DNA from: an uncultured Verrucomicrobiota bacterium
GTDB taxonomy: Bacteria > Verrucomicrobiota > Kiritimatiellia > RFP12 > UBA1067
Length of the DNA stretch: 64,000 nucleotides
Assembly: GCA_946544115.1 (NCBI GenBank)
Contig: CAMNLW010000002.1
Coordinates: forward strand, 6,729-70,728
Reading direction: 5' to 3'
The translations under genes were made by a program, and so were the position numbers. This document shows, in pieces, positions 2,719 to 54,330 of the stretch; position 1 is the stretch's first letter; the number at the start of each line of letters is the position of its first letter. The notes below the pieces were generated by a model. That model was not told where the DNA came from, ran no database searches, and saw only the letters and a program-made list of their open reading frames with translations.

Positions 2719-3744
2719 TTACTTCTTCGCGAGCATGAACTCGCACATGACCGTCGTGCCAGACGGAATCTTGGACTGTATGTCGAACGTGTCGGCGACG
2801 CGCTTCGAATTCGCGAGCCCCATTCCCGCGCCGAACCCCATGGAGCGTATCCAGTCATTCGCCGTAGATGTCCCGTCCTGACAGGCCCACTCCACGTCTT
2901 TGATGCCCGGCCCGCGGTCCTTGGCGACGATCGTCGCCTTCTCGGTGTCGAGGATGAACGTTATCGACCCGCCTAGAGAATGGATGCAGATGTTTATCTC
3001 CAGCTCGTAGGCGGCCACTGCGACGCGGCGGACGATTTTGTTGTCTATTCCCGCATCCTTCATCATCTTCTTTATTTCGTTCGCGGCCTTGCCAGCATTC
3101 GAGAGGTCGTTTCGCACGACCATGAACTGGCGCATCGAGTAGTATGGCAGCGCGCCCTCGCTCTTCGCGCGCTCCGCCGGCGCGGCCTTGCCCTCCAGCT
3201 TGGCGATCTCTTTCGTGAGCTCCTGCATTAGCACGCGCGTCACGTCGCGCTGGGAGACGATGCCGACGAGGTCGCGGTCCTTGTTGAGCACGGGGAAGCG
3301 CCCGAAAGTGTAGTTCTGGAAAAACTTGATCGCGAACGCGAGCGGCATGTCGGCTTCTAGCACGACAAGGTTCGTCGCCATGTGCTGCTGGCACGTGTCG
3401 TTTATCCACCCGCCTTCGAGCGCCTTGATGATATCGTTGACCGAAATTATGCCGAAGAGACGCTTGCCCTCGACAACCGGCACGCCCGAGATGTTGTTGA
3501 GCTTCATCAGATGCTGGGCGCGGGCCATCGTGTCGGCGCGCGAGACGGCGATGATGTCGTGGCCGCGCATCACATCGCGCACGCGCAGACGCTGCAGCAG
3601 CTCCATGATGACAAGCGGACTGTCATCCGCGCCGGGCAGCCCCGGACCGGATACGCTGCGCACCTTGTCGTGCGCGGCGAGAATCTCGTCGTCGCTCTTC
3701 GACTCGCCGCCGGTGAGGATCTTCGGACTGTAGCCTTCGGCCAT
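2719..3744 (-). CDS. CBS-domain pair fused to a GHKL/HATPase_c (anti-sigma-factor/RsbW-like Ser kinase) domain
   Basis: 341-aa product. Two CBS-like repeats (VRDVMRGHDIIAV...GVPVVEG...IISVNDIIKAL; GRFPVLNKDRDLVGIVSQRDV) are followed by a C-terminal region with the N-box and G-box of histidine-kinase-like ATPases (ELEINICIHS...DRGPGI...GFGAGMGL). Confidence 0.6.
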   Translation of the reverse strand: MAEGYSPKILTGGESKSDDEILAAHDKVRSVSGPGLPGADDSPLVIMELLQRLRVRDVMRGHDIIAVSRADTMARAQHLMKLNNISGVPVVEGKRLFGIISVNDIIKALEGGWINDTCQQHMATNLVVLEADMPLAFAIKFFQNYTFGRFPVLNKDRDLVGIVSQRDVTRVLMQELTKEIAKLEGKAAPAERAKSEGALPYYSMRQFMVVRNDLSNAGKAANEIKKMMKDAGIDNKIVRRVAVAAYELEINICIHSLGGSITFILDTEKATIVAKDRGPGIKDVEWACQDGTSTANDWIRSMGFGAGMGLANSKRVADTFDIQSKIPSGTTVMCEFMLAKK

Positions 3745-6603: not shown

Positions 6604-9600
6604 TTACGGCTTGACAGGAAGCGCTTTCACGCGGAAGAATCCGCACGGTTCGGTGCGCGGCGAACTTCGTATCGTCATCGGACCGTTCGCCGTCGCGCGG
6701 ATGAACGACTCCGCATCTGGGGCGAACGCCGCGCTTTCGCCGAGTTCGTCCGCCACCTCGTAGCCGTACCACAGTCCGATGACGGCATTGTCTATGCTGG
6801 ACGAGACGATCGTTTCTCCCGCGTCGTCCGTCACGGCCGCGACGGGCGGATCGTCGCCCGCCGCCGCAAACCGCGGCGCGGCGACCGTCGCCGGATTCAC
6901 ATCGACAACCGCTTGATAGGTGCCCTCGCCGGCTGCGACCGCGCGCACGACGAGATTGTCCGCCGACAATCCCGCCTCCTTGTCGTCCGCCGTCAGCGTC
7001 GGCGCAATCGTCTTGACGACGGCCGCCGCAGCCTTGTCGTTCTTTGCCGCGAACGTCAATACGCCGTCGGCGGACGACAGACCATGCAGGCACGTGCCGT
7101 CGGATGAATTGAGCACGACGGCGCCGATTCCGCCGAAATCGGCGTTTCCGACAATCACCTGATCTGTCAGTTCGTCCAAGTGCGCGGCGATGTAGGCGCG
7201 GCGGTCGGACACGACGTATATGCAGTCGTTCGAATCGCAGACGGTTCCTGCGGGCAGCGTCCACTCGACGCCAAAACGAAGCGTCCATCCGCTCATGTCC
7301 ACGACCTCGTCGTTCGCGTTCGAGACGACAACCACCCCTTCCGCATGCCGGGAGAAATCCAGCGTGATATTCGGCGCGAGCGACTCGATCGAACTCTGCG
7401 CCTCGGGAATGCCGGCGTTATAGCGCGAGCCGTAGCCGATTTTCCACGCCGTGTTCGTGACGGAGTGCGTCACATACAGATGCTCGCGGCGCGGGACGAC
7501 ATAGTTGTTCCAGATGTCTTCGATTCCTTCGTCAATGTCAGACGGACGCTTGCCGTCCGGCCACACGTCAATCGCGGCATCCGAACCGTCGTTCAGCCAC
7601 TTTGCGCCATCCAGCCTGGAATCGGCGCGCATGAGATCAGCCATCTCGCGCATCTTCACCATGAACGGCGTGTCGGCTTCGGCGGTTCCCGGCTCTTTCA
7701 GTTCCTGGTCCATCAGCGTCCTCAGGCGACGCAGGTAGAGTCGGCGGAATTTCGCGGACTGCAAGACCGACTCGAAGCCGTCATTGCCGTTGTTTATTGT
7801 TGAAGTCATCGCAGGCGACGCATAGCATCTGACGCGGTTGCCGCCGTAGAACGGATGGCACTTGAACCAGTCATCCTGTGCCTTGAGGCCCGAAGCGCTC
7901 ATACCGCCATCACGATAATGCTGTCCGAACGTCAGGTTGAAGTCGTAGCCGAGCGGCATCCACGTTCCCGTGCCGCGAGCGCCCTCCTTCATATCCGGGT
8001 TGTCGTAGTAGATGCAGACATTCGCCCAAACGTCATCCATCTCCTGCGTGATACGCGCCGAGGCGAGGTAGTTGAGCCACGCGGGAAGATCAAACTTCTC
8101 GACGACGAACCTCGTCAAATTTTCAACGTCCTCTCCGACAGACTGTGCACCATATTGTTTGAGATAGTAGCGCAATTCATCTTCCAGCACATCGACATTT
8201 TTCTCGTCCTCGTCGTCCGGCGTCTTCTTTTCTGCGCCACCGGCAGATGTGCCGTAAGTGTTGTCATTCTTCGGTCCACTCTTCATCGTCCCGACGTTCT
8301 TGTAGCCGTAGCCGAACTTGTCCAGTCCGTACACGTCCTCGATCAGTTCGTCGGTGAAACGCTCGGAATTGAACGCGAGCTGGTAGAACTCGCCGTTCAG
8401 ATTGCAGCGCACCGGGAAGTCGAACGGCACGAGGTTCCCCATCCTGCGCCACAGCCAGAACGCGATCATCTGGCGCATGTAGCTCGGGTCTGCGAACTCG
8501 CTGATGAGCGAAGTCTTGCGGATTTCCTCTATCGGCTCGCCCGTCACGACGTCTGTCATCGTAAGCGGATGCGCCTTGGCGAAGCGGAGGCCGTGCCCCT
8601 TCTTCGTGAACCCGGCGGAGGTGTTTCCGCGCAGGTCGATTCGAACATAGTCGTAGTAGTTGGAAGTGGACGAATCGTATATCGCCACACGCGCCTGGTT
8701 CGGGACCTTGGAGCGGTCTTGCTTGTCGGCATCGACATCCATCTGCGTCAGGTGGTTGCCGCTCGCGAACATGTGCCAGGTCGGCAGCGTCGCGCTCATC
8801 TGCGTCGCCGTGTCAGGCTCGACGATGGTGCCGTACCACTCGTATCCGTCGTCTGGGTTGTTGAAGCTGGGCGAAGTCCATTCCACTCCTTCGCCGTCGG
8901 TAATCAGCACCTTCCACTGCATAAGATGCCCGGCGGCCGGGAAGTAGCTCGCCGGTATCGCCGCCGTATACTGATCGCCCCACGCCTTCTTGTCGGTGGA
9001 CTTTGTTGTCATAGTCACGACATTAGTTGTCAATGTTGCATCGTCCAAATCCTTCCGATAGACGAGTTTGATGGATTCTATCTTATCTTTTGTGCGCGGC
9101 GAGAAGGTTCCATTCGGATTCATCACCGGATTGATAGGTAGCGTTATCGCATAATCCTCGCCAGGTTTTGCAGGCGGAACAGGGCGAGCGAATTCGTTGG
9201 CCACGTCCGTCTTCTTGAGCGAAGAAATTTCATAGAGCGGGCCGACATTCGGGCCAATGCGCTTCAGCCTGTCCGTAGACGTGTTCGCCCTGCCGCGTGT
9301 CGGCGTGGGACACATCCAGCGACGAGTGCCTTCGCCTTCCGCCGCATCACCGACGATAATCGACCAGCCCTCGGGCAAGTCGCTGGGGATTACGACGGTA
9401 TCGACAACATTGGTCGTCGCGGCATTAGGCATGTAATACAATCTCACAAACGGCGATTTCTTGGGATTCACCTTGTCGCCCCAGACGAGTATGTTGCCGT
9501 AGTCCTTGAATATCTCAGGCTTGCCCTTGAATTTGCCATTCTCAAACGCGCTATCTTTCTGGCTCTTGCTGTTCGAATAGCGTTCGGACGTGTAGAATAT

Positions 9601-12600
9601 CGCACGGCTGCGCGGCGGCACAAGGCGGGACGGGAAGTTGCCAAAACCCGCCGGATCAGTCTTCTTGCCGCGATTGACGCGGATGAAGCGATAATCTGCA
9701 AGATCCGCCCACTGGTCGGATGTGTTTTCGACTTCCACCCAGCCGGATTCAAGTCCGTTTACATCCATACCCTCCAATGCGCCGCGATTTAGCGCATCCG
9801 TCGGCTTTGGCATTATCTCGCCGATGCGAAGGACTGAGCTATCGGCCACTTCTGGGTTGATAGCACCTGTTTCCCTGTAAAGGTTTAATGCGGCCAATTG
9901 ATTTACTACATTCTGTCCTGCAAAGTCGGCAAGGACGCCCAATTGCTGCAAGGTTTGGTCTGCAGAGTCGTCTGTGCGCTCGAAAATAGCACTGCCAACT
10001 CCAAAATCAGTATGGACGGAATAAATCTTCATGCCAGGGAGAGGATATTTATTGCGCCGATCATTACCGAATGTAATAGGACCGGAAATTTCAGACGATG
10101 CCCACTGAATAACAGTTGTACTCGCAATCTCTTTGCCATCGCAATAAAGTTTGGCACCTGTTTGTGCGCCAAAGGCAAATGTCCAAACATGTGGCGCTGT
10201 CCAATTTTCAACTACACTTGAGGTTGCGGTGTCTGTTGTGTCAGTATGTCCCAGAGAGAAGGTACCATTGCCATTGGAGTATGCAAAAGCGTAAAATGTG
10301 TCAGAGTTCCGTTTTAATTGGCAACCGATAATTATGCCAGCCGCCCCTTCCGGCAATTCAGCTAGCACGCTTGCACACACTGCGTTGGTGCTGAAGTGGA
10401 GCGTCTCAACGACACCCTTCGAACCGACCTCGATTCCGCCTAAAGGTCCGCCAATCGCATTTGCCTCGAAACTGGACGGGAATGCCCAGCTGATATCGTC
10501 ACTTGTCGAAGAGTGCTCACACTCCAGAGTTTGGATATCTTCAAGCGCAATATCCTTCAGCCATACGGCATCGTCCGCCTCCGGCGTCAAATCCTTGTTG
10601 TCGGACGGATTGTTCATCGCGTAACGTTGCGAGAAGACGAATACGACTTCATGCGCGCCATCGGGAATGTCGATCGCCGCCGCCGTCCAATCGTTCGTGC
10701 ATTCCGTTTGCGCGAGGACGGGCGAATCGTCGAGAAGTACGTCGAAATGCGAATAGTTGTCGCCCGCGAGCATTGCGCCGCCAAAATAAGACTTGTGCTT
10801 GAACGAAAGACGTTTTGGACCAACTATCGTCGCCTTGAGCGGAGTCGTGCACTGATATGCGTAGTCGGCCTGATTGTAGCTGCGAATGGTGTCGCCTTCA
10901 ACCGTCCACGGATATTTCAGGCTTGTCTGCCAAACAGCATCCACGGCATTGGCGAGAAGATCGCACCGAATGAATTTCACCTTGCGAACAGGCAGGAGGT
11001 AATCGGCACCAGCGGGACGCAGCGCCACGGAAAGAGTCTTATCCGCAGTAATATTCACGACAGGATTTGCGGATGAATATTCAAAGGCATCATCCAGTTT
11101 TTCGATTATTGGATCTGAGCCATCTAAAGTATAGTAGATACTCGCGCCCTCAATTGGGGAAGAAAGACGCACCGAAATTCTCTCGGAAAATACGCGCCCA
11201 GAGGTGACTTCCTCGCCCGTGCCATCGACAAAAACAATCGCTTCGTCGCTATACGTCTTCAAGGCGTCGCGCCATTCAGCGACATACGAACATGTCTCAC
11301 GCAGGACTCGCGCGTTATCGTTGTCGGCATCGCCGAGCACTAGCCCGAATTCGCTCGACGAAGTAGAGAAATACCACGAAGCGTCTTTGTCGCCGCCGTA
11401 TGCCATGATTGTATGGCGCGTCACATTGCCGTCTTTGAAATAAAAACCTCTTCCATACGCGAACGGCGAACAGATGTTATTGCCTTGCGCTCTGGCGTGT
11501 CCGCAGCCCATATTGTGGGCGTTCTCGTGAATCATGGTGTGTTGCTTGCCGATATCGACTGCACGGATACTGCAAACGCTGAAAGCGCACTCATGTTGGC
11601 TTGCCACATTATCAGGCGAATTGAGCGGCGAGCTGTTGCCGAGCGTATTACCAGTCACATCCACAAGTAGCGTCACGGTGTCAGCACCATACATCTCGCG
11701 CGCCGCACGCAGGCCGACAGCCGCATCCACGCCTGCCGCCGCAAGCCCAGGCGCCGAATTGATGTCGCCGTACGTGCCGTCGACCTTGCACACTCCGGCG
11801 AGGCGATACGAATAGAACCTGTCGAGTTTGTTCGTGACAAGCACGTCGTTCATCTTTTTGATCTGCTCTTGCGCGAACTCTTCAAGCGTAACGCCCTTGT
11901 TTGCCACGTACGCCTGCGCGCCATTGTCATACGCGACGAGCACATCGACTGTCGGCACACGGAAGCCTTGCTTCGATTTGAGCGAGAGTGTCTTGGTTGT
12001 GCTGTCATAGACAAGTTCGCGCCCAGCTCCAAGCCCATCCACCTGCATGCTCTGCCAATTTACAAGTCCGCCAGGCGCGACAAGCAATGCAACTCCATCC
12101 TCGTGGGGTTCGCCGCCAAGAACCAGGCGCAGAGTCGAACAGTCAAGCGAGCGTGTACCTGTCTGGACAAGAGAAGCACCATGTGCGAGTGTGATAGTCG
12201 ATTGCTTGGCATAAAGATTCGCAATAGTCACTGGCTTGGCAAGGACAAGCCCTGCACCGTTTATCGTCAGGTTTGCCGTAGCGAAACCAGATACATCGCA
12301 TTCTGCGCCAATTGCAAGATAGCCGTTTGTGACCGTGATTGCGGCTCCATCTGCCTTGGTCGATAGAGACCCTGTCACATTGGCGGAAACGGGATTCCAC
12401 TGGTCACCCAAACGTGTGCCATTTGCGCAAACGAGATTCTTTACGGAAAGCGAGCCGCAGAGTTTTGCGTTGCTGCCGTCGAGGGTCACAATGCCGTCGC
12501 CCGTGATTGCGCCCGAGCCTGTGAGCCTAGCCCCGCTTGCGATGGTATATACGCCGGTGTTTTGGTGCTCGGCATTCATCACAAGTGTCATACCACCACC

Positions 12601-15600
12601 AACCGATGTCGCGCCGACATACGTCAACGGTTGACCATTGAAGCTGTTCTGTATGAATGTGCCAACGCCGGAAATGTTTATGCCACCGTTGGCATTGGCG
12701 AAGTTCGCCGTGCCGTCCGCATAGATGATGTTGTTTGTCAGCGTGGCTTTGTTGGAGAACGTGAACGTCGGCGACCCCTCCCGCAGATAGACATACGGTG
12801 AGGCCGTCTTTTCGGCGGATGAATCAAAGAGAGAATCTGCGCTCACTGATATCGTCGGGGCGTTGTATAACTCGAAAGCGCGGCCATAACTCTTGTTATC
12901 GCCAGCGACGGTGAACGAGCCGCCCTTGAAATTCAACCTGCGGCGGAAATTGACCATTCCCCGGACCTCTATCCCGCCGCCGTTTTCGACATTGACAATC
13001 GAATTGTTGCCATTATCCGCCAAAGCATCGCTTCCCTCGAATACAAGCCTTCCGTTGTCCTTTACGGTAATCTGCAAACTCCCGAACAATCCGCGATTGT
13101 TGCCATTTGCGGTAAACACCGTCGTCCCTTCCCCGATGTTGAATTTAGACGTGCTCCAGAATGTGCCGGAATTGTTGAATTGGTTGAACACCTGCGTATT
13201 TCCGGCGCCTGGGGCGACATTGAGCGTCGAGGCCGCTCCTACTATAATAACATTCGAATTCGTCGCGCACGTCGCGGTGGCGTACTGGCCGAATGGCGCG
13301 TTGAATGTGTAGGTCTTTCCATCCGCGACATAGAAAGACGTGGAATCCATCTTGACGGGGACATTGAACGAAATGCTGTTCGGCGGGGAGAAATTCGCAC
13401 CGGGAAGCGATATGTGCGCATCTTCGTCGCCCCTGGCAAAAGTGTATGCGCTTGTAGTTGCAGAGATTTCGGCAACCTTTGGATTTACTGCCCCTTTGAC
13501 TGTGACGACGGGCGCGGCGTTTTCTGCTATATCTCCGAATGTCACCGTTGGCTGGTTTAGATTCGCAAAGCCGTACACCGAATCATTCCACGCAAGTACT
13601 GCCGAATCATCCATCCATCTGCCGTTGCCATTCTGCCCTGCTTCGCCGGACCATGCGAGCGGAACATTTTCCGTAAACGAGACGCTGCGGAGGAAGAGCC
13701 CGTGCGTTTTGCCCGTCGTCGCCCCGATGTTGTTCTGGCTGTACACAAAGCGCACATCATGTGTCCCCTCGGGAATAGCGACACTTCGCGTGATGTCGCT
13801 GGAGGATCCCTTTGTGTCGCTCATAACAGTTTCGCCGTCGATTGTCACGGTAAAGGCGCTGCCCGTCAAGAACATTGTCTTGTATGTGAAACTCATTAGC
13901 TTTGGTCCTTCAACGAGAGTGCCAAGCCATGTATAATTGTGTAGTGCACCGTCGGCGAACGGGTAGTTGAAAATGTAGGTGCTGACGCTTGTGCCCCATT
14001 CATTCTGCGGCGACCCCGACCACACGCGGGTCGAATCGCCCAGCCATGTGCTCATATCGGCATTCCCTTTGTTCTTACTCCTGTAGTTAGATGCAAAAAC
14101 TGCGCTCGCCTTGCCATTCCCGTCAACCGCAATGGCCTTTATCGTGCAGTTTTTCGTTACGCTTATGGGTGACGAATATTGTGCCGATGACGTCGTCGGG
14201 GTCGAGCCATCGGTTGTGTAGTATATCGTCTGCCCGGTCTTGTCTGCTGTGAGTGTGACCGGGATTGTGCCGTTGAACGATGCCACGTCACGAGGTGAAA
14301 TGGCTACTTCGGTCTGGTTGTCCACCAGCTGCAGGTCATCAAGCCAAACGCCGGATTTTTTGTAGTGGGAGTTGCCCTGATTGTAGAGAATGGCGAGTTT
14401 GTGGCTTCCCGCTGGAATGTCTATATAGTCCTGCCGCCATGTCATGCTCGATTCTGCGGTCGAAAAGTAGCCGCCGTCGTCGCAAACCACTGAAAAACGC
14501 CCCCACAGCCCTTTGCCTTCGGAGAGAGAAGGGAAGTTTGACTTGTGCCTGAAATACAACCGCTTGGGACCTTCTGTTATGGTTGAGATGTAGGAGATTT
14601 TCTCCGGTCCGTAAGTTTCGCCGAATTCATAGTTGTGCAGCACCGTCTTTGCGCCGTTTGTCCAGTCAGAATCGCTTGCACCCGACCATGGATAGTCCCC
14701 GTCCGTCTGCCAGGCGAGACCGGCAATCGGCAACGTTCCCTTAACAACCTTGATTGAGCGCATTGACTCCGCGACACCGTTTGTGACAATGCATGCAGTA
14801 AGAGTGGTTGTGTCTTTTATGGTTATGCTTGTATTGAAGCGATATGGTATGGAGGTCGTGTTAGGAGTCGTTCCGTCGAGAGTCAGGTAGATTCTCGCGC
14901 TTTCTGGATAGGAACTGCTACCGGTTAGCGTAATCTGTATTGAATCTTCGAAGATTTGCCCGTGGCTGATATCATTGCCACTGGAGTCAAGGAATCGGAC
15001 ATCCCACTCGTACGGAATGGAATGCTCGCGCCATTCGCTGACGCCTTTGTAGGAGAGAGTCAGGACTTTGCGGTTGTTGTTCTTTTCCTCCGTACCTACG
15101 GGTACGCCATATTCCTTCGGCGTTATGTCCGGAGTGGAGTAGTATGGGATTGCTTCGAAATAATAGTCAGCATCTGATGTGTAGTTGTATCCCATCACAG
15201 TATAGCGCGGTTTCCCAGATGCATCAAGGAAGTGGTAGCCGCAGGAATACGAAGTCGATTGGGGGCCAGATTTTGATCCTTGCCGGTTGCTATGTCCGCA
15301 GCCCATGTTGTGTCCAACCTCGTGCGACATAGTGTAGCGGTTCCAGACGCGCCGGATATGGCAGACGTTGCAGGTCTGCCCGATGCTGTTTGCTACCACC
15401 GCATTACTTGCAATGGCATCGCCGTCCGCACCACCCAGTGGATAGCCTATACCAGTTGTATAGGAACTTGCGCTTTCATCGACATCCACAAGCAGCGTGA
15501 CGATATCTGCGCCATAATAATCTCGCAGCGCGGGTATATGGCTGAAAGGCGCTTCGCCTACACGTAGCGAATTCAGAATCGGGTTGGTTATGTTTGGATA

Positions 15601-16368
15601 TGTCGCATTGACTTGAGTGATGCCGACAAGACGGTAGAAAAAGAGGTGGTCAAGCTGCGACTTCTGTAGCACTATGTTCATCTTGTTGATGGCATAGTCG
15701 GCAAACTCCTCGATCGTATCGGCATCTGGGCAGTTACCACCTTCCACCCACGCCTTCGCCCCCTTGTCAAAGGCGACTAGGATATCTACGACGCTCTTTT
15801 GCTCTGCGAGAGGGAATTCATTGCCGGATGCGCCAAGCAGCGTGCGCGACTTTTTGGTTGATGTGGTCTTGGTTTCTTCGACGGCTGGCTGAGGGACCTC
15901 GATATCGCCGCCGCATGTGCCGCACTCGCCGTCATCCATCTGCGAATTGTCGCGCTCGACTATGAGCACCTTGCCGTCCTTGCAGCGGACGGTGTACTGC
16001 CGCCGGTTCATGAAATCGTCCACGGATATGCGGGCGGACTTTTCGCTTACCTTCACAATCGCCGAGGCCGAGCCATTCGCATCCTTCGCGATAAAGCTCT
16101 GCCCCGCGATACCGGCCGGCGGTGCGGAAACGATTCTGAGGGCATAGTCCACATCGCCGAAAAGCCTGAGGTTCAGCGTGTCGCCTACTGCGACTGCGGG
16201 GACTGTCCCCACATTCGTCGACATCTCCGCACGCCGCAACACAGGCGCTTCGGCGTCATGCGCCACGCCACTGGAGAAGTCGAGTGTATACTCCGCCGCA
16301 CAGACCGCAACCGACCAAAAGAGCGACAACGCGATAAGCAGCACCGTCGCATTTTTTCCTCCAGACAT
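6604..16368 (-). CDS. Giant secreted multidomain protein (3254 aa): two metzincin-like Zn-metalloprotease domains, chitobiase/Fn3-like domains, a beta-helix region, a CotH kinase-like domain and a C-terminal lamin-tail domain
   Basis: Start assigned to the MSGGKNATVLLIALSLFWSVAVCAAEY signal peptide, with GGAGG 8 nt upstream and TGGTATAAT further upstream. The HExxHxxGxxH zinc site appears twice (HEVGHNMGCGHS; HENAHNMGCGHA). Chitobiase-C-like segments are present (TLDGTTPN..., YYTLDGSDP). Gly/Asn/Thr-rich beta-helix repeats are present. CotH motifs are present (DYVRIDLRGNTSAGFTKKGHGLRFAK; VCIYYDNPDMKEGARGTGTWMPLGYDFNLTFGQHY; KFRRLYLRRLRTLMD). A C-terminal LTD is present (DMSGWTLRFGVEWTLPAGTVCDSNDCIYVV). 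Confidence 0.7.
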   Translation of the reverse strand: MSGGKNATVLLIALSLFWSVAVCAAEYTLDFSSGVAHDAEAPVLRRAEMSTNVGTVPAVAVGDTLNLRLFGDVDYALRIVSAPPAGIAGQSFIAKDANGSASAIVKVSEKSARISVDDFMNRRQYTVRCKDGKVLIVERDNSQMDDGECGTCGGDIEVPQPAVEETKTTSTKKSRTLLGASGNEFPLAEQKSVVDILVAFDKGAKAWVEGGNCPDADTIEEFADYAINKMNIVLQKSQLDHLFFYRLVGITQVNATYPNITNPILNSLRVGEAPFSHIPALRDYYGADIVTLLVDVDESASSYTTGIGYPLGGADGDAIASNAVVANSIGQTCNVCHIRRVWNRYTMSHEVGHNMGCGHSNRQGSKSGPQSTSYSCGYHFLDASGKPRYTVMGYNYTSDADYYFEAIPYYSTPDITPKEYGVPVGTEEKNNNRKVLTLSYKGVSEWREHSIPYEWDVRFLDSSGNDISHGQIFEDSIQITLTGSSSYPESARIYLTLDGTTPNTTSIPYRFNTSITIKDTTTLTACIVTNGVAESMRSIKVVKGTLPIAGLAWQTDGDYPWSGASDSDWTNGAKTVLHNYEFGETYGPEKISYISTITEGPKRLYFRHKSNFPSLSEGKGLWGRFSVVCDDGGYFSTAESSMTWRQDYIDIPAGSHKLAILYNQGNSHYKKSGVWLDDLQLVDNQTEVAISPRDVASFNGTIPVTLTADKTGQTIYYTTDGSTPTTSSAQYSSPISVTKNCTIKAIAVDGNGKASAVFASNYRSKNKGNADMSTWLGDSTRVWSGSPQNEWGTSVSTYIFNYPFADGALHNYTWLGTLVEGPKLMSFTYKTMFLTGSAFTVTIDGETVMSDTKGSSSDITRSVAIPEGTHDVRFVYSQNNIGATTGKTHGLFLRSVSFTENVPLAWSGEAGQNGNGRWMDDSAVLAWNDSVYGFANLNQPTVTFGDIAENAAPVVTVKGAVNPKVAEISATTSAYTFARGDEDAHISLPGANFSPPNSISFNVPVKMDSTSFYVADGKTYTFNAPFGQYATATCATNSNVIIVGAASTLNVAPGAGNTQVFNQFNNSGTFWSTSKFNIGEGTTVFTANGNNRGLFGSLQITVKDNGRLVFEGSDALADNGNNSIVNVENGGGIEVRGMVNFRRRLNFKGGSFTVAGDNKSYGRAFELYNAPTISVSADSLFDSSAEKTASPYVYLREGSPTFTFSNKATLTNNIIYADGTANFANANGGINISGVGTFIQNSFNGQPLTYVGATSVGGGMTLVMNAEHQNTGVYTIASGARLTGSGAITGDGIVTLDGSNAKLCGSLSVKNLVCANGTRLGDQWNPVSANVTGSLSTKADGAAITVTNGYLAIGAECDVSGFATANLTINGAGLVLAKPVTIANLYAKQSTITLAHGASLVQTGTRSLDCSTLRLVLGGEPHEDGVALLVAPGGLVNWQSMQVDGLGAGRELVYDSTTKTLSLKSKQGFRVPTVDVLVAYDNGAQAYVANKGVTLEEFAQEQIKKMNDVLVTNKLDRFYSYRLAGVCKVDGTYGDINSAPGLAAAGVDAAVGLRAAREMYGADTVTLLVDVTGNTLGNSSPLNSPDNVASQHECAFSVCSIRAVDIGKQHTMIHENAHNMGCGHARAQGNNICSPFAYGRGFYFKDGNVTRHTIMAYGGDKDASWYFSTSSSEFGLVLGDADNDNARVLRETCSYVAEWRDALKTYSDEAIVFVDGTGEEVTSGRVFSERISVRLSSPIEGASIYYTLDGSDPIIEKLDDAFEYSSANPVVNITADKTLSVALRPAGADYLLPVRKVKFIRCDLLANAVDAVWQTSLKYPWTVEGDTIRSYNQADYAYQCTTPLKATIVGPKRLSFKHKSYFGGAMLAGDNYSHFDVLLDDSPVLAQTECTNDWTAAAIDIPDGAHEVVFVFSQRYAMNNPSDNKDLTPEADDAVWLKDIALEDIQTLECEHSSTSDDISWAFPSSFEANAIGGPLGGIEVGSKGVVETLHFSTNAVCASVLAELPEGAAGIIIGCQLKRNSDTFYAFAYSNGNGTFSLGHTDTTDTATSSVVENWTAPHVWTFAFGAQTGAKLYCDGKEIASTTVIQWASSEISGPITFGNDRRNKYPLPGMKIYSVHTDFGVGSAIFERTDDSADQTLQQLGVLADFAGQNVVNQLAALNLYRETGAINPEVADSSVLRIGEIMPKPTDALNRGALEGMDVNGLESGWVEVENTSDQWADLADYRFIRVNRGKKTDPAGFGNFPSRLVPPRSRAIFYTSERYSNSKSQKDSAFENGKFKGKPEIFKDYGNILVWGDKVNPKKSPFVRLYYMPNAATTNVVDTVVIPSDLPEGWSIIVGDAAEGEGTRRWMCPTPTRGRANTSTDRLKRIGPNVGPLYEISSLKKTDVANEFARPVPPAKPGEDYAITLPINPVMNPNGTFSPRTKDKIESIKLVYRKDLDDATLTTNVVTMTTKSTDKKAWGDQYTAAIPASYFPAAGHLMQWKVLITDGEGVEWTSPSFNNPDDGYEWYGTIVEPDTATQMSATLPTWHMFASGNHLTQMDVDADKQDRSKVPNQARVAIYDSSTSNYYDYVRIDLRGNTSAGFTKKGHGLRFAKAHPLTMTDVVTGEPIEEIRKTSLISEFADPSYMRQMIAFWLWRRMGNLVPFDFPVRCNLNGEFYQLAFNSERFTDELIEDVYGLDKFGYGYKNVGTMKSGPKNDNTYGTSAGGAEKKTPDDEDEKNVDVLEDELRYYLKQYGAQSVGEDVENLTRFVVEKFDLPAWLNYLASARITQEMDDVWANVCIYYDNPDMKEGARGTGTWMPLGYDFNLTFGQHYRDGGMSASGLKAQDDWFKCHPFYGGNRVRCYASPAMTSTINNGNDGFESVLQSAKFRRLYLRRLRTLMDQELKEPGTAEADTPFMVKMREMADLMRADSRLDGAKWLNDGSDAAIDVWPDGKRPSDIDEGIEDIWNNYVVPRREHLYVTHSVTNTAWKIGYGSRYNAGIPEAQSSIESLAPNITLDFSRHAEGVVVVSNANDEVVDMSGWTLRFGVEWTLPAGTVCDSNDCIYVVSDRRAYIAAHLDELTDQVIVGNADFGGIGAVVLNSSDGTCLHGLSSADGVLTFAAKNDKAAAAVVKTIAPTLTADDKEAGLSADNLVVRAVAAGEGTYQAVVDVNPATVAAPRFAAAGDDPPVAAVTDDAGETIVSSSIDNAVIGLWYGYEVADELGESAAFAPDAESFIRATANGPMTIRSSPRTEPCGFFRVKALPVKP

Positions 16369-16445
16369 GTTCCACCTCCTCTGTTTGGTGCAATTATACC
16401 ATAATTTACCCTGCACCGCCCAATCGGCGAACACCGGATTGCACG

Positions 16446-37315: not shown

Positions 37316-38440
37316 CTACAGCGGCGGTATCGCCTTTTTCACTGCGGCAAGCAGTGCTTGGGGCGAAGGTTGTGTATAGCGGGCGTGCATCCCGCCGCCC
37401 GCGTGGCCGGTGATTGCATCCGTGATATGCGGCGGAACCCCCGCCTCGTCCATCATTGAGATGAATGTGGCACGCAGCGAATGAAAGCTTGCACGTCCGT
37501 TGCCGTGTGCAAAAACGCCGCAGCTTTTGAAAGCTGCGGCGATTTTCCGCGATGGACGATGACGAGCATCTTCGGAGAAAAGATATGGATCTCCGTCAGG
37601 AGGAGAGGTTCGTCGCCGCAGTATAAGATTTCGCACCTGGTTCGTCAGCGGAATCTTGAGTGGAATAGGTTTGGTGAGATGCGTCTTGTTCGGTACAACG
37701 CGCAGGAACCTCCCATCCGCCTCAATTTCGGACCATTCCAGCCAGGCGACATCCGAAAGCCTGAGCCCGGTCGAATAGCCTATCACAACCATATCCGCCA
37801 GGTCTCGATTCCTGCTCTGCAGATAACCATGCACTTTGCGGCTCTCGTCAAGCGACAGCCGCCTGTAGTGCTCGTGTCTGCAAAGCGGTTTCACGGTGCC
37901 TGCTCCGGACGTCTCCCAAAGCCCACGGTCGAGGCCGAGCGTGCTCCAGACGCGTCGATAAAACACGAGCATCCGACGCGCTGATATATATGCCCCCATA
38001 AGTCTCGCTGTTATCTTTGCACATGCATCCTTCTTTAGTATGTCTTCTGGCAAAAGGCCAAGTTCATCAGCCGCTTCGGCAAGAATCCGCATCCAGCGTT
38101 CATAGCTCGTTTCGCTTGCTTCGGAAATCGTTCCAGCTGCGCGAGCCATGAATTCGTCCCAGAGATTTCTCCATGTGAGAGACGCCAGAGCAGAACGTCG
38201 GCGAAGCTCAAGGTCGGCCCGCGCGCCAAGCCGTGATAGATGCTCAAGCCAGGCCTGCTCGCTGTCTTCCGGCGGCAGAAGTTTTCGCGCCCGCTTCTTC
38301 GCAATGTTGAAATCGCCCGTTTTCAGCGAAATCCACTTGCTCCTCCCGCCAAGGCGCGTGACGAGATAAAGGATGTTACCGCGGAGTTGAATAGATCCAA
38401 AGTTAAGTTTCATGGAGTGAATAATAGCAAATTTGCGCAA
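37316..38440 (-). CDS. Tyrosine site-specific recombinase / phage-type integrase
   Basis: Catalytic residues recognisable: GLRLSD (Arg I), HSLRATF (HxxR) and GGMHARYTQ (Tyr). Its stop is 3 nt from the stop of giant B on the opposite strand. Confidence 0.75.
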   Translation of the reverse strand: MRKFAIIHSMKLNFGSIQLRGNILYLVTRLGGRSKWISLKTGDFNIAKKRARKLLPPEDSEQAWLEHLSRLGARADLELRRRSALASLTWRNLWDEFMARAAGTISEASETSYERWMRILAEAADELGLLPEDILKKDACAKITARLMGAYISARRMLVFYRRVWSTLGLDRGLWETSGAGTVKPLCRHEHYRRLSLDESRKVHGYLQSRNRDLADMVVIGYSTGLRLSDVAWLEWSEIEADGRFLRVVPNKTHLTKPIPLKIPLTNQVRNLILRRRTSPPDGDPYLFSEDARHRPSRKIAAAFKSCGVFAHGNGRASFHSLRATFISMMDEAGVPPHITDAITGHAGGGMHARYTQPSPQALLAAVKKAIPPL

Positions 38441-38472
38441 TAACGACTATAGAAACATATTGCGCCCGCTTA

Positions 38473-41400
38473 TTACTTGTCCAATATCAATGGAATTGAA
38501 CGCGTTCCAGCACGACCTTCTATACTGTCTGTAAAATAAACCGTTCCACATCCATATGCCTTCTCCGGAGCCACTATTCCACATTCACATGGCAAGACCC
38601 ATCCCGGAGTGACAACGCCGGCATAGGCAGCCGATATCATGCGTCCACCGTCAAACGGTATTCTATAAGCACCTCTGAAAACACCATTTCTAGTGTGGAA
38701 ATAGAACGAATTCCCTTGTGCCTTGTCAAGTGCAAGACCTTTTGGTTCCACTCGCACCAAGAGTCTGCTCGGTGGTGCAAATGCACCGTACCGTTCACTG
38801 GCCGTCGCTCCTTCTACAATTGCTGACAACGAAAATGGAGCTTCTGGAACATAGCGGTCAATATCACCGTAAAAGAGTTTATCTAAGGTTTCTTGTGAAA
38901 CTCCTTGGGGATACCACGAGCCGTAAACGGAATGAATGGCAAACCACCTAACGGTTGTCCCTTGATGAAGTGTGTATGCTATATGACTGCTGGCAGATGT
39001 TACTATCTCGCGAACAAGTCGGCTCCCATCTGAGGTTATTTCGCTAGACGCCCACTTTTCTGCACCATCTACGCCAATTGAAAAAACACCGCCGAATATA
39101 TTGTGGGCCGAGCGTGAAAAAAAAGGCACTCGCGCATTTTCACGATATCTATCGAATCCGCTTATCCTCGTCGAGCCGCTTATGGATATGCCGTCTGGAG
39201 CAATTCCTGCAAAGCGGACAACACCGTTCTTAAGGTTCGACACGCCAGCTATAGAAAGCGTCAAGAAGCCTGATCCTGTCGGCGCTTCAGCAGGACCTTC
39301 TACTTCAATCACGGGTAAAGCGACTGTGTAATATCCCTTGAGTTTATCGAAAACGCTGGTCTCCGGCCAATCGGCTTCTGCAGAAAATGTGTTTCCGTGG
39401 CAATTGTACCCGTCAGGCAGTGAAAGGACTGTAGAAAGTCGGCCAGATGTCTCCATAGATGCATAAAGCACACAATCCTTTGAAACCAGTGTCGCTGTTG
39501 CTGTGCCGTTTGTGTCCAAGGTCTGCCATTTGCCTGCGAAACTGACGGTCCTCCCCTCTGTCCCGATGTACTTTGCTGAAAGGGAACCCTGCGATGTTGA
39601 GGCGAATGAGAGTGTGCCGGCTGCTAATCTGTACCCTTCATCATCCGTTGCAAACAGTGTCATAATCTGATTAGAACGTTTCACGCCTAACATTGGATTG
39701 ATTTTGGGCGAATCTGTTATGGTAAAACGAAATGTTGTTTCAAAACCTGTGACTTTTTTACCATAGCGACGTGAAGAGACAACACAGGTAAATTCATATG
39801 TCCCAGTCTTTTTGGGGACTCCAGATAGAAGGATCGCACCACTTTTTTTATCGTATTTGAGAGTCAGTCCAGACGGAAGTGGTGCCGAGCCGGGGATGCG
39901 AGAAACAACCACCTGTGTATCGGCAGATCCAAGACCTATAAGCGCAAAAGAATTTGTTGGAGTGAACATGGTATATGCTGAGACATCGTATGTCATCTGT
40001 CCAAAACAGGGAGCGTCAGTATCAATTATGGTAACGGCGCAAGTGGCATTCTCACCAATGAACGAATTACCCTGCAATCGTTCTAGTGTAAGCGTGAATG
40101 TACCATCCCCCTCGAAAACCTCATTGGGAATAAGTGTAAAACAAACCTCTTTCTCTCCTTGTTCTCCATCGCGCCAAGAAAGTATTTGATCTTCCCATAC
40201 AAAACGTTCTTCTGATGCATTATCTGATTTGGTGCAGATTACACGAACTGAAGACGCGCCGTAGCCGCCATCTTTGCGCACTATGCTCACGGTTCCGGTT
40301 CCTGCAAACTCAATTATTCGCATATCGGATGAGGCGAAGGCTATCTCACCTGGATTTTGGTCGGGTGGCGACGCCGCAAGTGCAAGTGTATACCGTGCCT
40401 CCGTCGAACCAGAGAAATCAACCGCAAATCCATCGTCGGTGTTCTGGCATGATACGCCAGCAAACCATCGTTCTCCAGGAGGAAGGTTGGTTTTCAGCGT
40501 AAAGCCATCGCTAAGCACAACACGCTCTTTCACGACGGGCCGCAATATTCCGGCCTCCAAAACCGACAAGGCTAACGTAATTACATTTGACGCCTCGCCA
40601 GAAACATACAGCCTTAGACTGGAACCTGCTGATACATCGGAAAGTTCATACCAGTCTGCCGTGTCTGCATGGCACAGCGTGCTTGCGATTGAAAAATCAG
40701 ATGCAAGCATGCTACCGGTAGTAATCGGGTGGTTGTCGCTGATTTCGCCTGGCTCATCTGCCAACTCCAGCATCTCGTCGAACCGGGCGATATAATTGCT
40801 CCAATTGGCCAGGTCGTCCTCTCCGGGCGACTTGTTGGCGAAGCGGGTTAGACGGGCGGCAACCGTACCGTCCTTTCGCAGCAGGACGAAAATGGGCACG
40901 CCCGTGCGGTAGGCGTTCGTGTCCTCGGGACGGTGGTACCCACCCGCGTCAGTGTTGGTCTTTACAAGAAAATGGTTTCGCGCACGCATCGCCGCGGCGG
41001 CTTCGTCCGACACCATTTTCCTCGAAAGGTATGGGCGTCCGCTCCTCATTGCGCCGCGCGACAAGTAGGCCGTCTTCGAAAACATTGAAGGGGAAGCGCA
41101 GTTCTCCGGACCCGCGCCGTTTCTGGCACTGAAATTTGGAATATCCACCACGGCAAGCGCAACATGATTAGATTCTGCCCATTTTCTGAAGAGGTTGTCC
41201 CCGTTTGTGTCGGCAAGGTCTAGAAAATTGGCATCGGTATTAGCACAATCGGGGCACCAGAGCGAGCCTTGAACGCTTACAAGAGTATACGCTGCACCAT
41301 CGGTTGCTGCCACCATATTGGTTACAATGTCAAGGTCGACCGTCCATTCACCAAAAGCAAGTGTCTCTGCCGTTCGCTCGCCAAGCCATAATGGATTGTT

Positions 41401-42312
41401 GTTCGAGTTCGCCTTTTCGACAAAGTAAATCTCGTTTGTTCCACAGAAATAGCCGCCGTCACCGTAAAGTTCAAGCCCAACCTTTTCGCCATTGACGAAT
41501 GAATTCATCAGACCAATACGTACCGACTTGGTGGTTTCTTCCAACGCCCAAGGAACCTCGTTTGTTAAAACGTTGCCAGAAGGGAAAACGGCGACAAGTC
41601 TGTTTGTGCATACGGATGACAGGCTATCTGTGCCACGAACAAGCTCTATGTCTACATATTCCGTTGTCCGTTCGGCTTCATACCGGTCAAATTCTGTACC
41701 CGATGCGGTAAACGAACCGCCACGATAGTTGGGCACGATGTCATTGTCAGAGAGCCATTTCAAGTAGAGCGACTTGAACCCAGCCCAACTACGACTCCCT
41801 GTACCATATGGCGAGCCTCCAGTTACAATCGAGCCGTCCCCTTTTTCATAATAAAAGCCAAAAAGCGGAAACGCCGCCTGCCCTCCGCATACTGTGGTTA
41901 TAAAACGGTATGCGTCATAAACGACCTTTGGTTTGTAGTTTGACGCTGGTACGCTATCATCAGATGTGTCGGCCTTAAAGTAGACGAAAACAGCTCTGTT
42001 TGCCGATAGAAAAGATGCCACCTCTTCAACTTTCCCGTTTATTTCCGAGATGAGATTGTTGCAGTGTTGACAATCTTCTTCGCTCCATATCACAACCAAA
42101 GGCACATGTTCTGCTGTTGCAAGTGCCTTGGCTTTTTCTAGAGATTCGTCGCCCGGTCCATCAGACTTTGTCTGATATCCATAAAACATTCCAGCCGCAA
42201 TCGAAGGATTTCCGCTAGTCTGAATCAGCCTTGAATCCAGAGTCGCCGCCATTCCCGACCAGGCGAGAAAGGTCGCTATTGCAAAAACCATGGTTGTGAA
42301 TGTCAACTTCAT
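38473..42312 (-). CDS. Giant secreted protein A' (1279 aa), paralog of A
   Basis: Signal peptide. LVVIWSEEDCQHCNNL and SLWCPDCANTD...PIFVLLRKDGTVAARLTRF are Trx-like CxxC. PPC-like (DTADWYELSDVSAGSSLRLYVSGE). Calx-beta (VSIVRKDGGYGASSVRVI). Putative Ig-like (LPSGLTLKYDKKSGAILLSGVPKKTGTY). C-terminal domain ...LPCECG...GCGTVYFTD. Confidence 0.6.
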   Translation of the reverse strand: MKLTFTTMVFAIATFLAWSGMAATLDSRLIQTSGNPSIAAGMFYGYQTKSDGPGDESLEKAKALATAEHVPLVVIWSEEDCQHCNNLISEINGKVEEVASFLSANRAVFVYFKADTSDDSVPASNYKPKVVYDAYRFITTVCGGQAAFPLFGFYYEKGDGSIVTGGSPYGTGSRSWAGFKSLYLKWLSDNDIVPNYRGGSFTASGTEFDRYEAERTTEYVDIELVRGTDSLSSVCTNRLVAVFPSGNVLTNEVPWALEETTKSVRIGLMNSFVNGEKVGLELYGDGGYFCGTNEIYFVEKANSNNNPLWLGERTAETLAFGEWTVDLDIVTNMVAATDGAAYTLVSVQGSLWCPDCANTDANFLDLADTNGDNLFRKWAESNHVALAVVDIPNFSARNGAGPENCASPSMFSKTAYLSRGAMRSGRPYLSRKMVSDEAAAAMRARNHFLVKTNTDAGGYHRPEDTNAYRTGVPIFVLLRKDGTVAARLTRFANKSPGEDDLANWSNYIARFDEMLELADEPGEISDNHPITTGSMLASDFSIASTLCHADTADWYELSDVSAGSSLRLYVSGEASNVITLALSVLEAGILRPVVKERVVLSDGFTLKTNLPPGERWFAGVSCQNTDDGFAVDFSGSTEARYTLALAASPPDQNPGEIAFASSDMRIIEFAGTGTVSIVRKDGGYGASSVRVICTKSDNASEERFVWEDQILSWRDGEQGEKEVCFTLIPNEVFEGDGTFTLTLERLQGNSFIGENATCAVTIIDTDAPCFGQMTYDVSAYTMFTPTNSFALIGLGSADTQVVVSRIPGSAPLPSGLTLKYDKKSGAILLSGVPKKTGTYEFTCVVSSRRYGKKVTGFETTFRFTITDSPKINPMLGVKRSNQIMTLFATDDEGYRLAAGTLSFASTSQGSLSAKYIGTEGRTVSFAGKWQTLDTNGTATATLVSKDCVLYASMETSGRLSTVLSLPDGYNCHGNTFSAEADWPETSVFDKLKGYYTVALPVIEVEGPAEAPTGSGFLTLSIAGVSNLKNGVVRFAGIAPDGISISGSTRISGFDRYRENARVPFFSRSAHNIFGGVFSIGVDGAEKWASSEITSDGSRLVREIVTSASSHIAYTLHQGTTVRWFAIHSVYGSWYPQGVSQETLDKLFYGDIDRYVPEAPFSLSAIVEGATASERYGAFAPPSRLLVRVEPKGLALDKAQGNSFYFHTRNGVFRGAYRIPFDGGRMISAAYAGVVTPGWVLPCECGIVAPEKAYGCGTVYFTDSIEGRAGTRSIPLILDK

Positions 42313-42322
42313 GCATCAATTC

Positions 42323-47428: not shown

Positions 47429-47485
47429 TTTTGTCCTCCGTTTGATACATTCTAGTTTCTTTAAATGTTTAATATTCGTCATCCG

Positions 47486-51370: not shown

Positions 51371-51406
51371 GGCGCCGACCTTCTGATTATTTAGACCCCT
51401 GATTAA

Positions 51407-52513: not shown

Positions 52514-52594
52514 TTGCAATCTCACTGATGTATATTAAGAAAGGGTGGGGTGTAGCAATACACCTCACCCATTCTCGACTTGCGTCAAGTCAAC

Positions 52595-54064: not shown

Positions 54065-54330
54065 TTTTGTTTCCTTTACTTTGGAGTCGGGCTTGTTGTC
54101 CCTTCCCCGATTCCCTCCGCTTTCCTGAACTCTTGCGGTCACCCGACCGCCTTTGCTCAAGTCCACTTCAGGTGGTTAACTTATTGTCCCCTCGCAGTTC
54201 AGGGCGCACGGCTGGATTGACCTTGTCCGTTAACCACAGGCTCGGACATCCCATCCGGGCCAAAGTCAATAAGCAAAGGCGAGAGAATGGGGTTTCCCTT
54301 GTTTTTGCTAAAAGCCGGGATGCCGCGCGA
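54065..54330 (-). ncRNA. Conserved ~220-250-nt 5' leader (copy B), inverted relative to copy A
   Basis: The reverse complement of about 54080-54260 matches 26550-26730. A candidate TAGAAT -10 (plus-strand complement attcta) lies near 54326-54331. Confidence 0.5.

Follow-up and report, generated by a model that had tools for sequence, protein, structure and literature searches.

To our knowledge, secreted bacterial CotH kinases are widespread, and both their substrates and their extracellular mode of action are obscure. Here we describe a gene in which such a kinase domain is joined to two metzincin-type protease domains. It lies on the minus strand of a 64,000-nucleotide stretch (hereafter the window) of contig CAMNLW010000002.1 from an uncultured Verrucomicrobiota bacterium of the class Kiritimatiellia, and encodes a 3254-amino-acid (aa) product that we refer to as the giant protein. 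Among proteases, its closest described counterparts are two enzymes. CpaA of Acinetobacter (MEROPS M72; 6O38), secreted by a type II secretion system (T2SS), is an M72 metzincin that cuts before O-glycosylated Ser/Thr and carries Ig (immunoglobulin)-like repeats resembling glycan-binding modules; according to its describers, the O-glycoprotease class cannot be assigned by homology (PMC7542363). Mep72 of Pseudomonas aeruginosa, a metzincin exported via Sec/T2SS, carries two carbohydrate-binding modules, from which the metzincin domain is freed during export, and it auto-degrades in vitro (PMC4334185). For the kinase, the reference is the Bacillus spore-coat protein CotH (5JD9/5JDA), the B. subtilis version of which loses its activity upon D228Q or D251A exchange (PMC7821199). 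In cellulosomes, Clostridium thermocellum CseP/Cthe_0044 and Cthe_0239 (LTD, LTD, Fn3, CotH) combine lamin-tail domains (LTD) with CotH in extracellular proteins (PMC6083626; PMC12484212); proposals for the role of extracellular CotH in that setting include structural and regulatory ones (PMC12484212).

How does the giant protein compare? With CpaA and Mep72 it has in common the HExxHxxGxxH zinc motif and the Met-turn. Both of these enzymes carry a Sec signal, are secreted and join their catalytic domain to Ig-like or carbohydrate-binding modules, and the giant protein is likewise modular. Unlike them, it has a second catalytic domain, differs in its accessory modules and includes a CotH cassette, and no adjacent CpaB- or BamI-like chaperone or inhibitor gene was seen at the giant-gene loci examined. 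From Bacillus CotH it retains the fold, the aligned Asp/Asn, the metal-binding Asp and a pair of lysines, although at 16–17% identity and with insertions, among them one between D2778 and D2809. Moreover, Bacillus CotH is a spore-coat protein of ~360 aa, whereas the giant protein would be an exported protein of a non-sporulating diderm, for which no substrate resembling the Ser/Lys/Arg repeats of Bacillus CotB/CotG was identified. Closer in setting are the cellulosomal CotH proteins of C. thermocellum and anaerobic gut fungi, which are extracellular, combine LTD with fibronectin type III (Fn3) or Ig modules and take part in large extracellular enzyme assemblies of anaerobic polymer degraders including rumen organisms, a setting that would resemble that of the giant protein. 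Cellulosomal CotH proteins, however, are recruited by dockerins to scaffoldins, whereas Pfam scans detected no dockerin in the giant protein, which instead features a covalent fusion to proteases and a lineage-specific tail.

The giant protein is the union of two gene modules that also occur separately, and more often so. Module A (aa 25–2150) would be a double-metzincin exoprotease; module B (aa 2170–3254) comprises a lamin-tail domain, two Ig-like domains, a predicted CotH atypical Ser/Thr kinase, a second lamin-tail domain and a tail. The first-pass annotation of the window had described two HExxHxxGxxH metzincin modules, each followed by a chitobiase-C-like domain, together with a complete CotH domain and an LTD, and all of these recurred in the analyses below. 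Not part of that description were the N-terminal beta domain, the LamG domain, three beta-sandwiches, two Ig-like domains and the C-terminal tail.

Both protease domains contain the extended zinc motif and a Met-turn of the metzincin zinc endopeptidases (clan MA(M); YTVMGY with M392 and HTIMAY with M1655), and in an alignment of 31 full-length homologues (45–86% identity to the query) the H/E/H/H residues of both motifs and both Met-turns are invariant throughout. Over 277 aa, 36% of positions are identical between the two domains (E 2e-42), the modules downstream of each are likewise homologous to one another, and, judged by their sequences, the domains are paralogues. Pfam Reprolysin_5, an M12B-like (adamalysin-type) family, scores 53.7 bits in two stretches of the whole protein (cut-off 27), 41.9 bits with domain 1 alone, where the Reprolysin_5/3/4 matches span aa 192–402, and 24.7 bits with domain 2 alone, just under the cut-off and covering profile positions 4–189 of 196. 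In a structure model of aa 24–700 with a mean predicted local distance difference test score (pLDDT) of 77, the N-terminal beta domain, protease domain 1 and the first CHB_HEX_C_1 domain are confident, and the linker and beta-sandwich 1 are not. The top PDB match of this model in Foldseek is CpaA of Acinetobacter (6O38; E 1.2e-9), followed by ADAM17, PAPP-A, ADAMTS4/5, ADAM10 and ADAM33; with a probability of 1.0 to CpaA, ADAM17, ADAMTS4/5, ADAM10 and ADAM33, domain 1 adopts the metzincin fold in this model. For domain 2, we infer the same fold from its similarity to domain 1. The model thus portrays protease domain 1 as an adamalysin-fold zinc protease whose closest M72 enzymes would be CpaA in fold and Mep72 in sequence. 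The corresponding NCBIfam models match in part, that of Mep72 with 105.6 bits (cut-off 645) over profile positions 1–213 of 573 and that of CpaA with 33.6 bits (cut-off 750), which falls short of full-length MEROPS M72 membership. Because the similarity covers the catalytic domain only, we term these proteases M72-like and do not file them as M72 members.

The CotH domain (PF08757) is well above the Pfam threshold (73.3 bits for aa 2577–2892 in the whole-protein scan and 78.7 bits in the segment scan; cut-off 23.8). An AlphaFold2 model of aa 2170–3100 (mean pLDDT 88.7; predicted template modelling score, pTM, 0.87) finds its best PDB matches in B. cereus CotH (5JDA/5JD9; E 7e-16; template modelling score, TM, of 0.73–0.75 normalised to CotH), with further Foldseek matches to assorted Ig/Fn3-like domains. 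Searched by itself against PDB sequences, the CotH region returned noise only; a profile built from 41 cassette sequences matched 5jd9 by sequence (E 1.4e-19). In the profile alignment, K55/K56 of the B. cereus protein correspond to K2589/K2590, D224-x4-N229 to D2778-x4-N2783 and D247 to D2809. Given their equal 23-residue spacing, B. cereus D224 and D247 are presumably the equivalents of B. subtilis D228 and D251, that is, of the two positions targeted in the inactive mutants. The lamin-tail domains (PF00932) scored below the Pfam cut-off of 34.3, the first with 26.6 bits in the whole-protein scan (aa 2176–2272) and 21.8 bits in the segment scan, the second with 18.6 bits. Despite this, the assignment can be upheld because the cassette family profile matches the lamin A tail in the PDB (1ufg; E 0.009), Foldseek aligns the cassette model to the lamin-B1 tail (3jt0; probability 1.0, TM 0.52) and LTD was matched in 15 out of 15 cassette relatives scanned, with E-values down to 2.5e-41.

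Conservation is in line with three functional active sites. Besides all zinc ligands, both catalytic Glu and both Met-turn Met, the 31 orthologues invariantly keep K2589/K2590, D2778, N2783 and D2809, so that the catalytic-residue check that the first-pass annotation had called for found both zinc sites and the aligned CotH Asp positions intact. In a wider alignment that takes in cassette proteins of as little as 26% identity, N2783 and D2809 still do not vary, and conservation of D2778 is at least 90%. As judged from these residues, the three catalytic centres show every sign of being active. The most conserved region of the giant protein is the CotH cassette (75–79% identity), followed by protease 2 (72%), beta-sandwich 3 (71%), the N-terminal domain (70%), protease 1 (51%) and the beta-helix (34%). 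As an aside, the N-terminal beta domain is hence better conserved than the protease that it precedes.

Is this architecture peculiar to one genome? A whole-protein search retrieved ~31 clusters (at 90% identity) of 3000–3700 aa with the same set of Pfam domains, one of which bears the machine-given name 'CotH kinase family protein [Kiritimatiellae bacterium]', and a further ~45 clusters of 1800–2370 aa with the double-protease layout and without CotH. Scanning GTDB species-representative genomes, we found 71 loci; 7 species representatives carry the fusion, ~45 the cassette only and ~17 the protease module only. According to their record titles these loci derive from Kiritimatiellae-type metagenome-assembled genomes (MAGs; some under Verrucomicrobia or Lentisphaerae labels) or from 'uncultured bacterium' (RUG isolates), and some are labelled Candidatus Spyradenecus; named sources are gut compartments of goat, sheep, roe deer, yak and water buffalo, as well as horse faeces. 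All fusion carriers are ruminant or hindgut Kiritimatiellae-type MAGs. The first-pass annotation had known of no such combination of domains. That holds for the literature searched, in which we came across no description of a fusion between a double M72-like metzincin and a CotH cassette, or of its protein family; as a claim of uniqueness it fails, because the same architecture already sits, generically annotated, in related genomes.

On their own, the modules form a ~1950-aa double-metzincin exoprotease and a ~1100-aa LTD-Ig-CotH-LTD cassette, and in several genomes both are present as separate genes (for example in UBA3841, L027 and L028, and in UBA3761, L022 and L046). Protease-only Kiritimatiellae relatives (P0031–P0076) have the same layout of N-terminal domain, double metzincin, beta-helix and beta-sandwich, and cassette-only relatives (P0124–P0199) the same cassette; among these relatives, one clade and P0032 alone join both modules in a single polypeptide. 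An exhaustive search with the CotH domain yielded 770 representative proteins, and among the best 150 of them the cassette occurs in at least 75 clusters, in proteins of 800–4700 aa with many different partners. A second, word-indexed search for homologues of the CotH domain contributed little, most of its matches being short fragments. In 15 cassette proteins lacking the metzincins, the partners included LamG, Gly_rich_2, PATR and DUF2341, along with single cases of Peptidase_C10 and BNR. When the cassette was used to build a neighbour-joining tree, nearly all metzincin fusions fell into one clade, with P0032 elsewhere and some complete non-fused proteins inside the fusion clade. This grouping suggests that the fusions descend for the most part from a single event, with additional shuffling. 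Separately, we observed two or three full cassettes in some relatives (L034, L031, P0124, P0126), which in P0124 and P0126 lie within one protein; the single locus L034 (JAZQOS010000021.1) has three CotH matches at ~3.1, 7.5 and 11.2 kb.

The base composition of the gene is uneven. GC content at third codon positions (GC3) is 0.71–0.79 in the N-terminal domain and in the cassette from the Ig-like domains onward, similar to the housekeeping neighbours, 0.65 in LTD1 and 0.45–0.65 in the middle modules, where LamG has the minimum (0.45) and the others have 0.58–0.65. The block of the second CHB_HEX_C_1 domain and beta-sandwiches 1 and 2 is present in only 4–6 of 30 homologues. Together, mosaic GC3 and this patchy block suggest a recent exchange of modules within a resident gene. 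Transfer of the gene as a foreign island, as the low GC of its middle might have implied, was set aside, the GC3 of the conserved ends matching that of housekeeping genes.

What, then, might the giant protein do? By analogy with the systems above, we consider it reasonably probable that it is a Sec-exported modular surface or extracellular multi-enzyme that acts on (glyco)proteins and was built from two joined modules. The protein would sit at the cell surface or be released. The targets of both proteases would be extracellular proteins, with glycoproteins from the host, the feed or microbes as the most plausible class, and the CHB_HEX_C, beta-sandwich and other carbohydrate-type modules would probably bind glycan or substrate. 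In the same extracellular setting, the CotH cassette would phosphorylate Ser/Thr on protein, candidate targets being the substrate of the proteases, the giant protein or surface proteins in its vicinity. The 'extracellular processing or phosphorylation' put forward in the first-pass annotation is a reasonable candidate function. Several points weigh against such a multi-enzyme. An extracellular or periplasmic kinase requires ATP, for which no source is evident. The resemblance to CpaA amounts to 18% identity over 266 columns and does not imply glycoprotease activity. The case for export and for the final location draws on analogy and on a signal peptide recognised by eye, support is weak for the beta-helix and for 'glycan-binding' by the beta-sandwiches, and for the family as a whole we infer peptidase, kinase and substrate class from sequence. 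Finally, at the loci compared, no gene for a secretion system, chaperone, inhibitor or candidate substrate travels with the giant gene.

Alternatively, the metzincins could mainly cut the giant precursor itself, for instance at its low-confidence linkers, thereby freeing the CotH cassette and the binding modules; the fusion would then be a device for co-delivery. Mep72, the best NCBIfam match, autoprocesses on export and degrades itself in vitro (PMC4334185), disordered yet conserved linkers such as aa 151–190 are available, and both modules exist as independent genes and can therefore each work alone. Still, two conserved paralogous catalytic domains, each equipped with its own binding modules, exceed what self-cleavage would need, and protease-only relatives (1800–2300 aa) display the same double-protease layout without any cassette to release, which makes a self-processing polyprotein unlikely in our eyes, if worth keeping in mind. 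A different objection concerns the kinase: the CotH domain might not phosphorylate proteins here at all, and rather serve as a ligand-binding or adhesive module, or act on a non-protein substrate such as a glycan, turning the giant protein into a protease-adhesin. A ligand-binding or adhesive role has been proposed for the CotH invasins of fungi, extracellular ATP is scarce, and Ig-like and lamin-tail domains border the cassette, which keeps company with many non-enzymatic partners (LamG, PATR, Gly_rich_2, DUF2341). The structural role suggested alongside a regulatory one for cellulosomal CotH would agree with this (PMC12484212). However, none of the 31 orthologues departs from the residues that align with the catalytic Asp, the Asn and the metal-binding Asp, and because the kinase domain is the best conserved part of the giant protein, catalysis fits better than mere binding; we regard a non-kinase CotH domain as rather improbable.

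That the giant gene is an artefact of assembly or annotation, either a chimeric open reading frame (ORF) or a decaying pseudogene bridged by read-through, could be suspected given that its source is a MAG and that GC3 ranges from 0.45 to 0.79 along the gene. Yet the same end-to-end architecture is found in the ~31 clusters, which were independently assembled in several projects, and in the 7 species-representative genomes, and the frame is uninterrupted over 9.8 kb with invariant catalytic residues. With recurrence of this kind excluding it, we give an artefact practically no credence. Readings as an autotransporter, as cargo of a type IX secretion system (T9SS) or as a polymorphic toxin were likewise rejected, since Pfam scans showed neither a barrel nor a T9SS C-terminal domain and none of the neighbouring genes is immunity-like.

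Within the multi-enzyme that we favour, protease and kinase might be functionally coupled. Asp-N, a member of MEROPS M72, selects Asp or cysteic acid at P1'. As Asp-N and CpaA, two characterised M72 enzymes, each select a special P1' side chain, it is conceivable that the CotH domain writes phospho-Ser/Thr on extracellular or surface proteins and that the M72-like metzincins read this mark as their P1' residue. Such kinase-primed proteolysis is suggested by the Rosetta-stone pattern of modules that are fused in one clade and separate in many sister genomes, and by the fusion of the CotH cassette to an unrelated type of protease, Peptidase_C10, in one relative. We nevertheless view it as a long shot. 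A possible cis substrate is the conserved, Ser/Thr/Lys/Arg-rich TKTTSTKKSRT linker that connects the N-terminal domain to protease 1; its phosphorylation could control activation. At the N-terminal edge of this linker lies a near-invariant ECGTCGG (aa 148–154; C149, C152), and the N-terminal domain with these two cysteines and the linker could represent a cysteine-switch prodomain or a site of phosphorylation or processing.

The remaining parts of the giant protein are listed with their coordinates in Table 1. Its N-terminal beta domain is also found in protease-only relatives. CHB_HEX_C_1 reaches 116 bits over three stretches in the whole-protein Pfam scan, and Laminin_G_3, with 28.0 bits, just exceeds its cut-off of 27.6. 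Pfam offered no family for the N-terminal beta domain, beta-sandwiches 1 and 3, the region preceding CotH or the C-terminal tail. The long beta-helix proposed in the first-pass annotation is borne out in part. When aa 900–1470 were searched alone against PDB sequences there was no match, and Pfam segments spanning aa 760–1620 gave nothing above noise. We nonetheless call the spacer (aa 901–1460; 560 aa) a probable beta-helix, because its family profile matches the passenger of IcsA (5ke1; E 2e-8) and because relatives, P0032 and others, have a PATR match. This passenger-like beta-helix emerges at the profile level only, and Pfam scans of the C-terminus revealed no beta-barrel translocator of a type V autotransporter.

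Table 1. Features of the giant gene and its product, with window coordinates.
Feature	Window coordinates	Strand	Basis
Whole coding sequence, 3254 aa plus stop codon	6604..16368	minus	identical public protein P0001
Shine-Dalgarno site GGAGGTGG and TATAAT-like hexamer	16369..16410	minus	read from sequence
Putative Sec signal peptide, aa 1–24, cleavage VCA/AE	16297..16368	minus	by inspection
Conserved N-terminal beta domain, aa 25–150	15919..16296	minus	70% mean identity in 29 orthologues; all-beta, high pLDDT
Low-confidence linker, aa 151–190, with TKTTSTKKSRT (aa 166–176)	15799..15918	minus	model and alignment
Metzincin domain 1, aa 191–470	14959..15798	minus	Reprolysin_5/3/4 above cut-offs; Foldseek CpaA 6O38; motif invariant in 31/31
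Zinc motif 1, HEVGHNMGCGH, aa 349–359	15292-15324	minus	sequence
CHB_HEX_C_1 / Fn3_assoc domain 1, ~aa 477–544	14737..14940	minus	Pfam and model
Beta-sandwich 1, variable module, aa 551–687	14308..14718	minus	low pLDDT; in only 6/30 orthologues
CHB_HEX_C_1 / Fn3_assoc domain 2, aa 688–765 (Pfam match 698–758)	14074..14307	minus	Pfam
Beta-sandwich 2, variable module, aa 766–900	13669..14073	minus	sequence comparison, orthologue alignment
Probable beta-helix spacer, PATR / autotransporter-passenger-like, aa 901–1460	11989..13668	minus	family profile
Metzincin domain 2, aa 1470–1720	11209..11961	minus	36% identity to domain 1; Reprolysin_5 24.7 bits; motif invariant
Zinc motif 2, HENAHNMGCGH, aa 1614–1624	11497-11529	minus	sequence
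CHB_HEX_C_1-like domain 3, ~aa 1723–1802	10963..11202	minus	Pfam, partial match (~1723–1755)
Beta-sandwich 3, conserved, aa 1805–1945	10534..10956	minus	71% identity
LamG / concanavalin-like domain, aa 1950–2150	9919..10521	minus	Pfam Laminin_G_3 match 2011–2112
Lamin-tail domain 1, start of CotH cassette, aa 2170–2290	9499..9861	minus	Pfam (weak), Foldseek, family profile, relatives
Two Ig/Fn3-like beta domains, aa 2291–2570 (~280 aa pre-kinase)	8659..9498	minus	model; Ig-like Foldseek matches; 75% mean identity
CotH atypical kinase domain, aa 2571–2960	7489..8658	minus	Pfam CotH; Foldseek; profile alignment to 5jd9
D2778 codon	8035-8037	minus	profile alignment to B. cereus CotH
D2809 codon	7942-7944	minus	profile alignment to B. 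cereus CotH
Lamin-tail domain 2, aa 2995–3090	7099..7386	minus	weak Pfam match ~aa 3012–3087; beta domain in model; recurs with cassette
Conserved 74-aa C-terminal tail, aa 3181–3254, end GFFRVKALPVKP	6607..6828	minus	orthologue alignment

We consider the conserved C-terminal tail a possible sorting or anchoring signal specific to this lineage. Pfam scans of aa 2900–3254 and 3090–3254 gave no match to the T9SS Por_Secre_tail or C-terminal domain, and the tail resembles T9SS signals only in an aromatic-basic strand at its end. Nearly all relatives (judged from the C-termini of P0002–P0085) finish in such a short strand, those with CotH in GFFRVKVLPAKP and protease-only ones in GFYKVEVSIE or RFYKVxVEIQ, preceded by ANGYxNWQNYxLGxDPxDP. 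When the other ORFs of the window were searched for this motif, the giant protein alone was found to carry it.

With respect to the gene itself, the frame is open from 16509 down to 6604 on the minus strand. Its internal ATG at 16368, which gives the 3254-aa product, is a sensible start because the upstream DUF711 gene ends at 16446. The sequence GGAGGTGG lies 5 nt upstream of this ATG and the TATAAT-like hexamer ~15 nt further up, and the public gene call for an identical protein (P0001; GCA_002395905.1, contig DGVK01000062.1, a MAG) also has 3254 aa. The single protein of this length given in the first-pass annotation is therefore well founded, and its description as secreted fits the N-terminus, MSGGKNATVLLIALSLFWSVAVCA before AE, which by inspection resembles a Sec signal peptide; in the orthologue consensus the mature protein begins AAEYTLDF. 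Within the window, the giant gene is surrounded by housekeeping genes, all on the minus strand: upstream DUF711 (UPF0210), an ACT-domain protein, a helix-turn-helix (HTH) protein, RlmL, dnaN and dnaA, the latter two 4–7 kb away, and downstream DUF3127 and PrmC. Transcription thus runs towards DUF3127/prmC and away from the DUF711/ACT pair, as had been noted before. This gene order is retained around P0004, a 64%-identical orthologue, and not around P0030 or P0032; synteny on the dnaA side is confined to close relatives. Conserved operon partners, looked for around the giant gene and at the loci of its relatives, were not found. At the P0030 locus (L003/L004 6702-7889), a 395-aa gene with weak Peptidase_C39-like matches is located directly upstream of the giant gene, which is probably coincidental since it was not seen at other loci.

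Elsewhere in the window, positions 38473-54175 (minus strand) together with 37316-38446 hold a run of five ORFs (1280, 1720, 1306, 375 and 526 aa) that adjoins a gene of the phage-integrase family. Pfam matches in this run are nearly absent, limited to Calx-beta in the first two ORFs, whose GC3 is low (0.46 and 0.57). Possibly, this run represents an integrated element with genes for large surface proteins.

The present finding is an observation on domain architecture, drawn from sequence. Every domain family involved is known, as is the extracellular combination of LTD with CotH, and the fusion was already deposited in databases under a generic, machine-given name. A CotH kinase domain that is covalently tied to two proteases, and that occurs in both fused and split versions in sister genomes, offers a handle on a possible link between extracellular phosphorylation and proteolysis. 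Kiritimatiellae of ruminants and the hindgut are otherwise known as degraders of sulfated glycans. The giant protein and its relatives point to the degradation of proteins or glycoproteins as a further activity of these abundant uncultured inhabitants of the rumen and hindgut.

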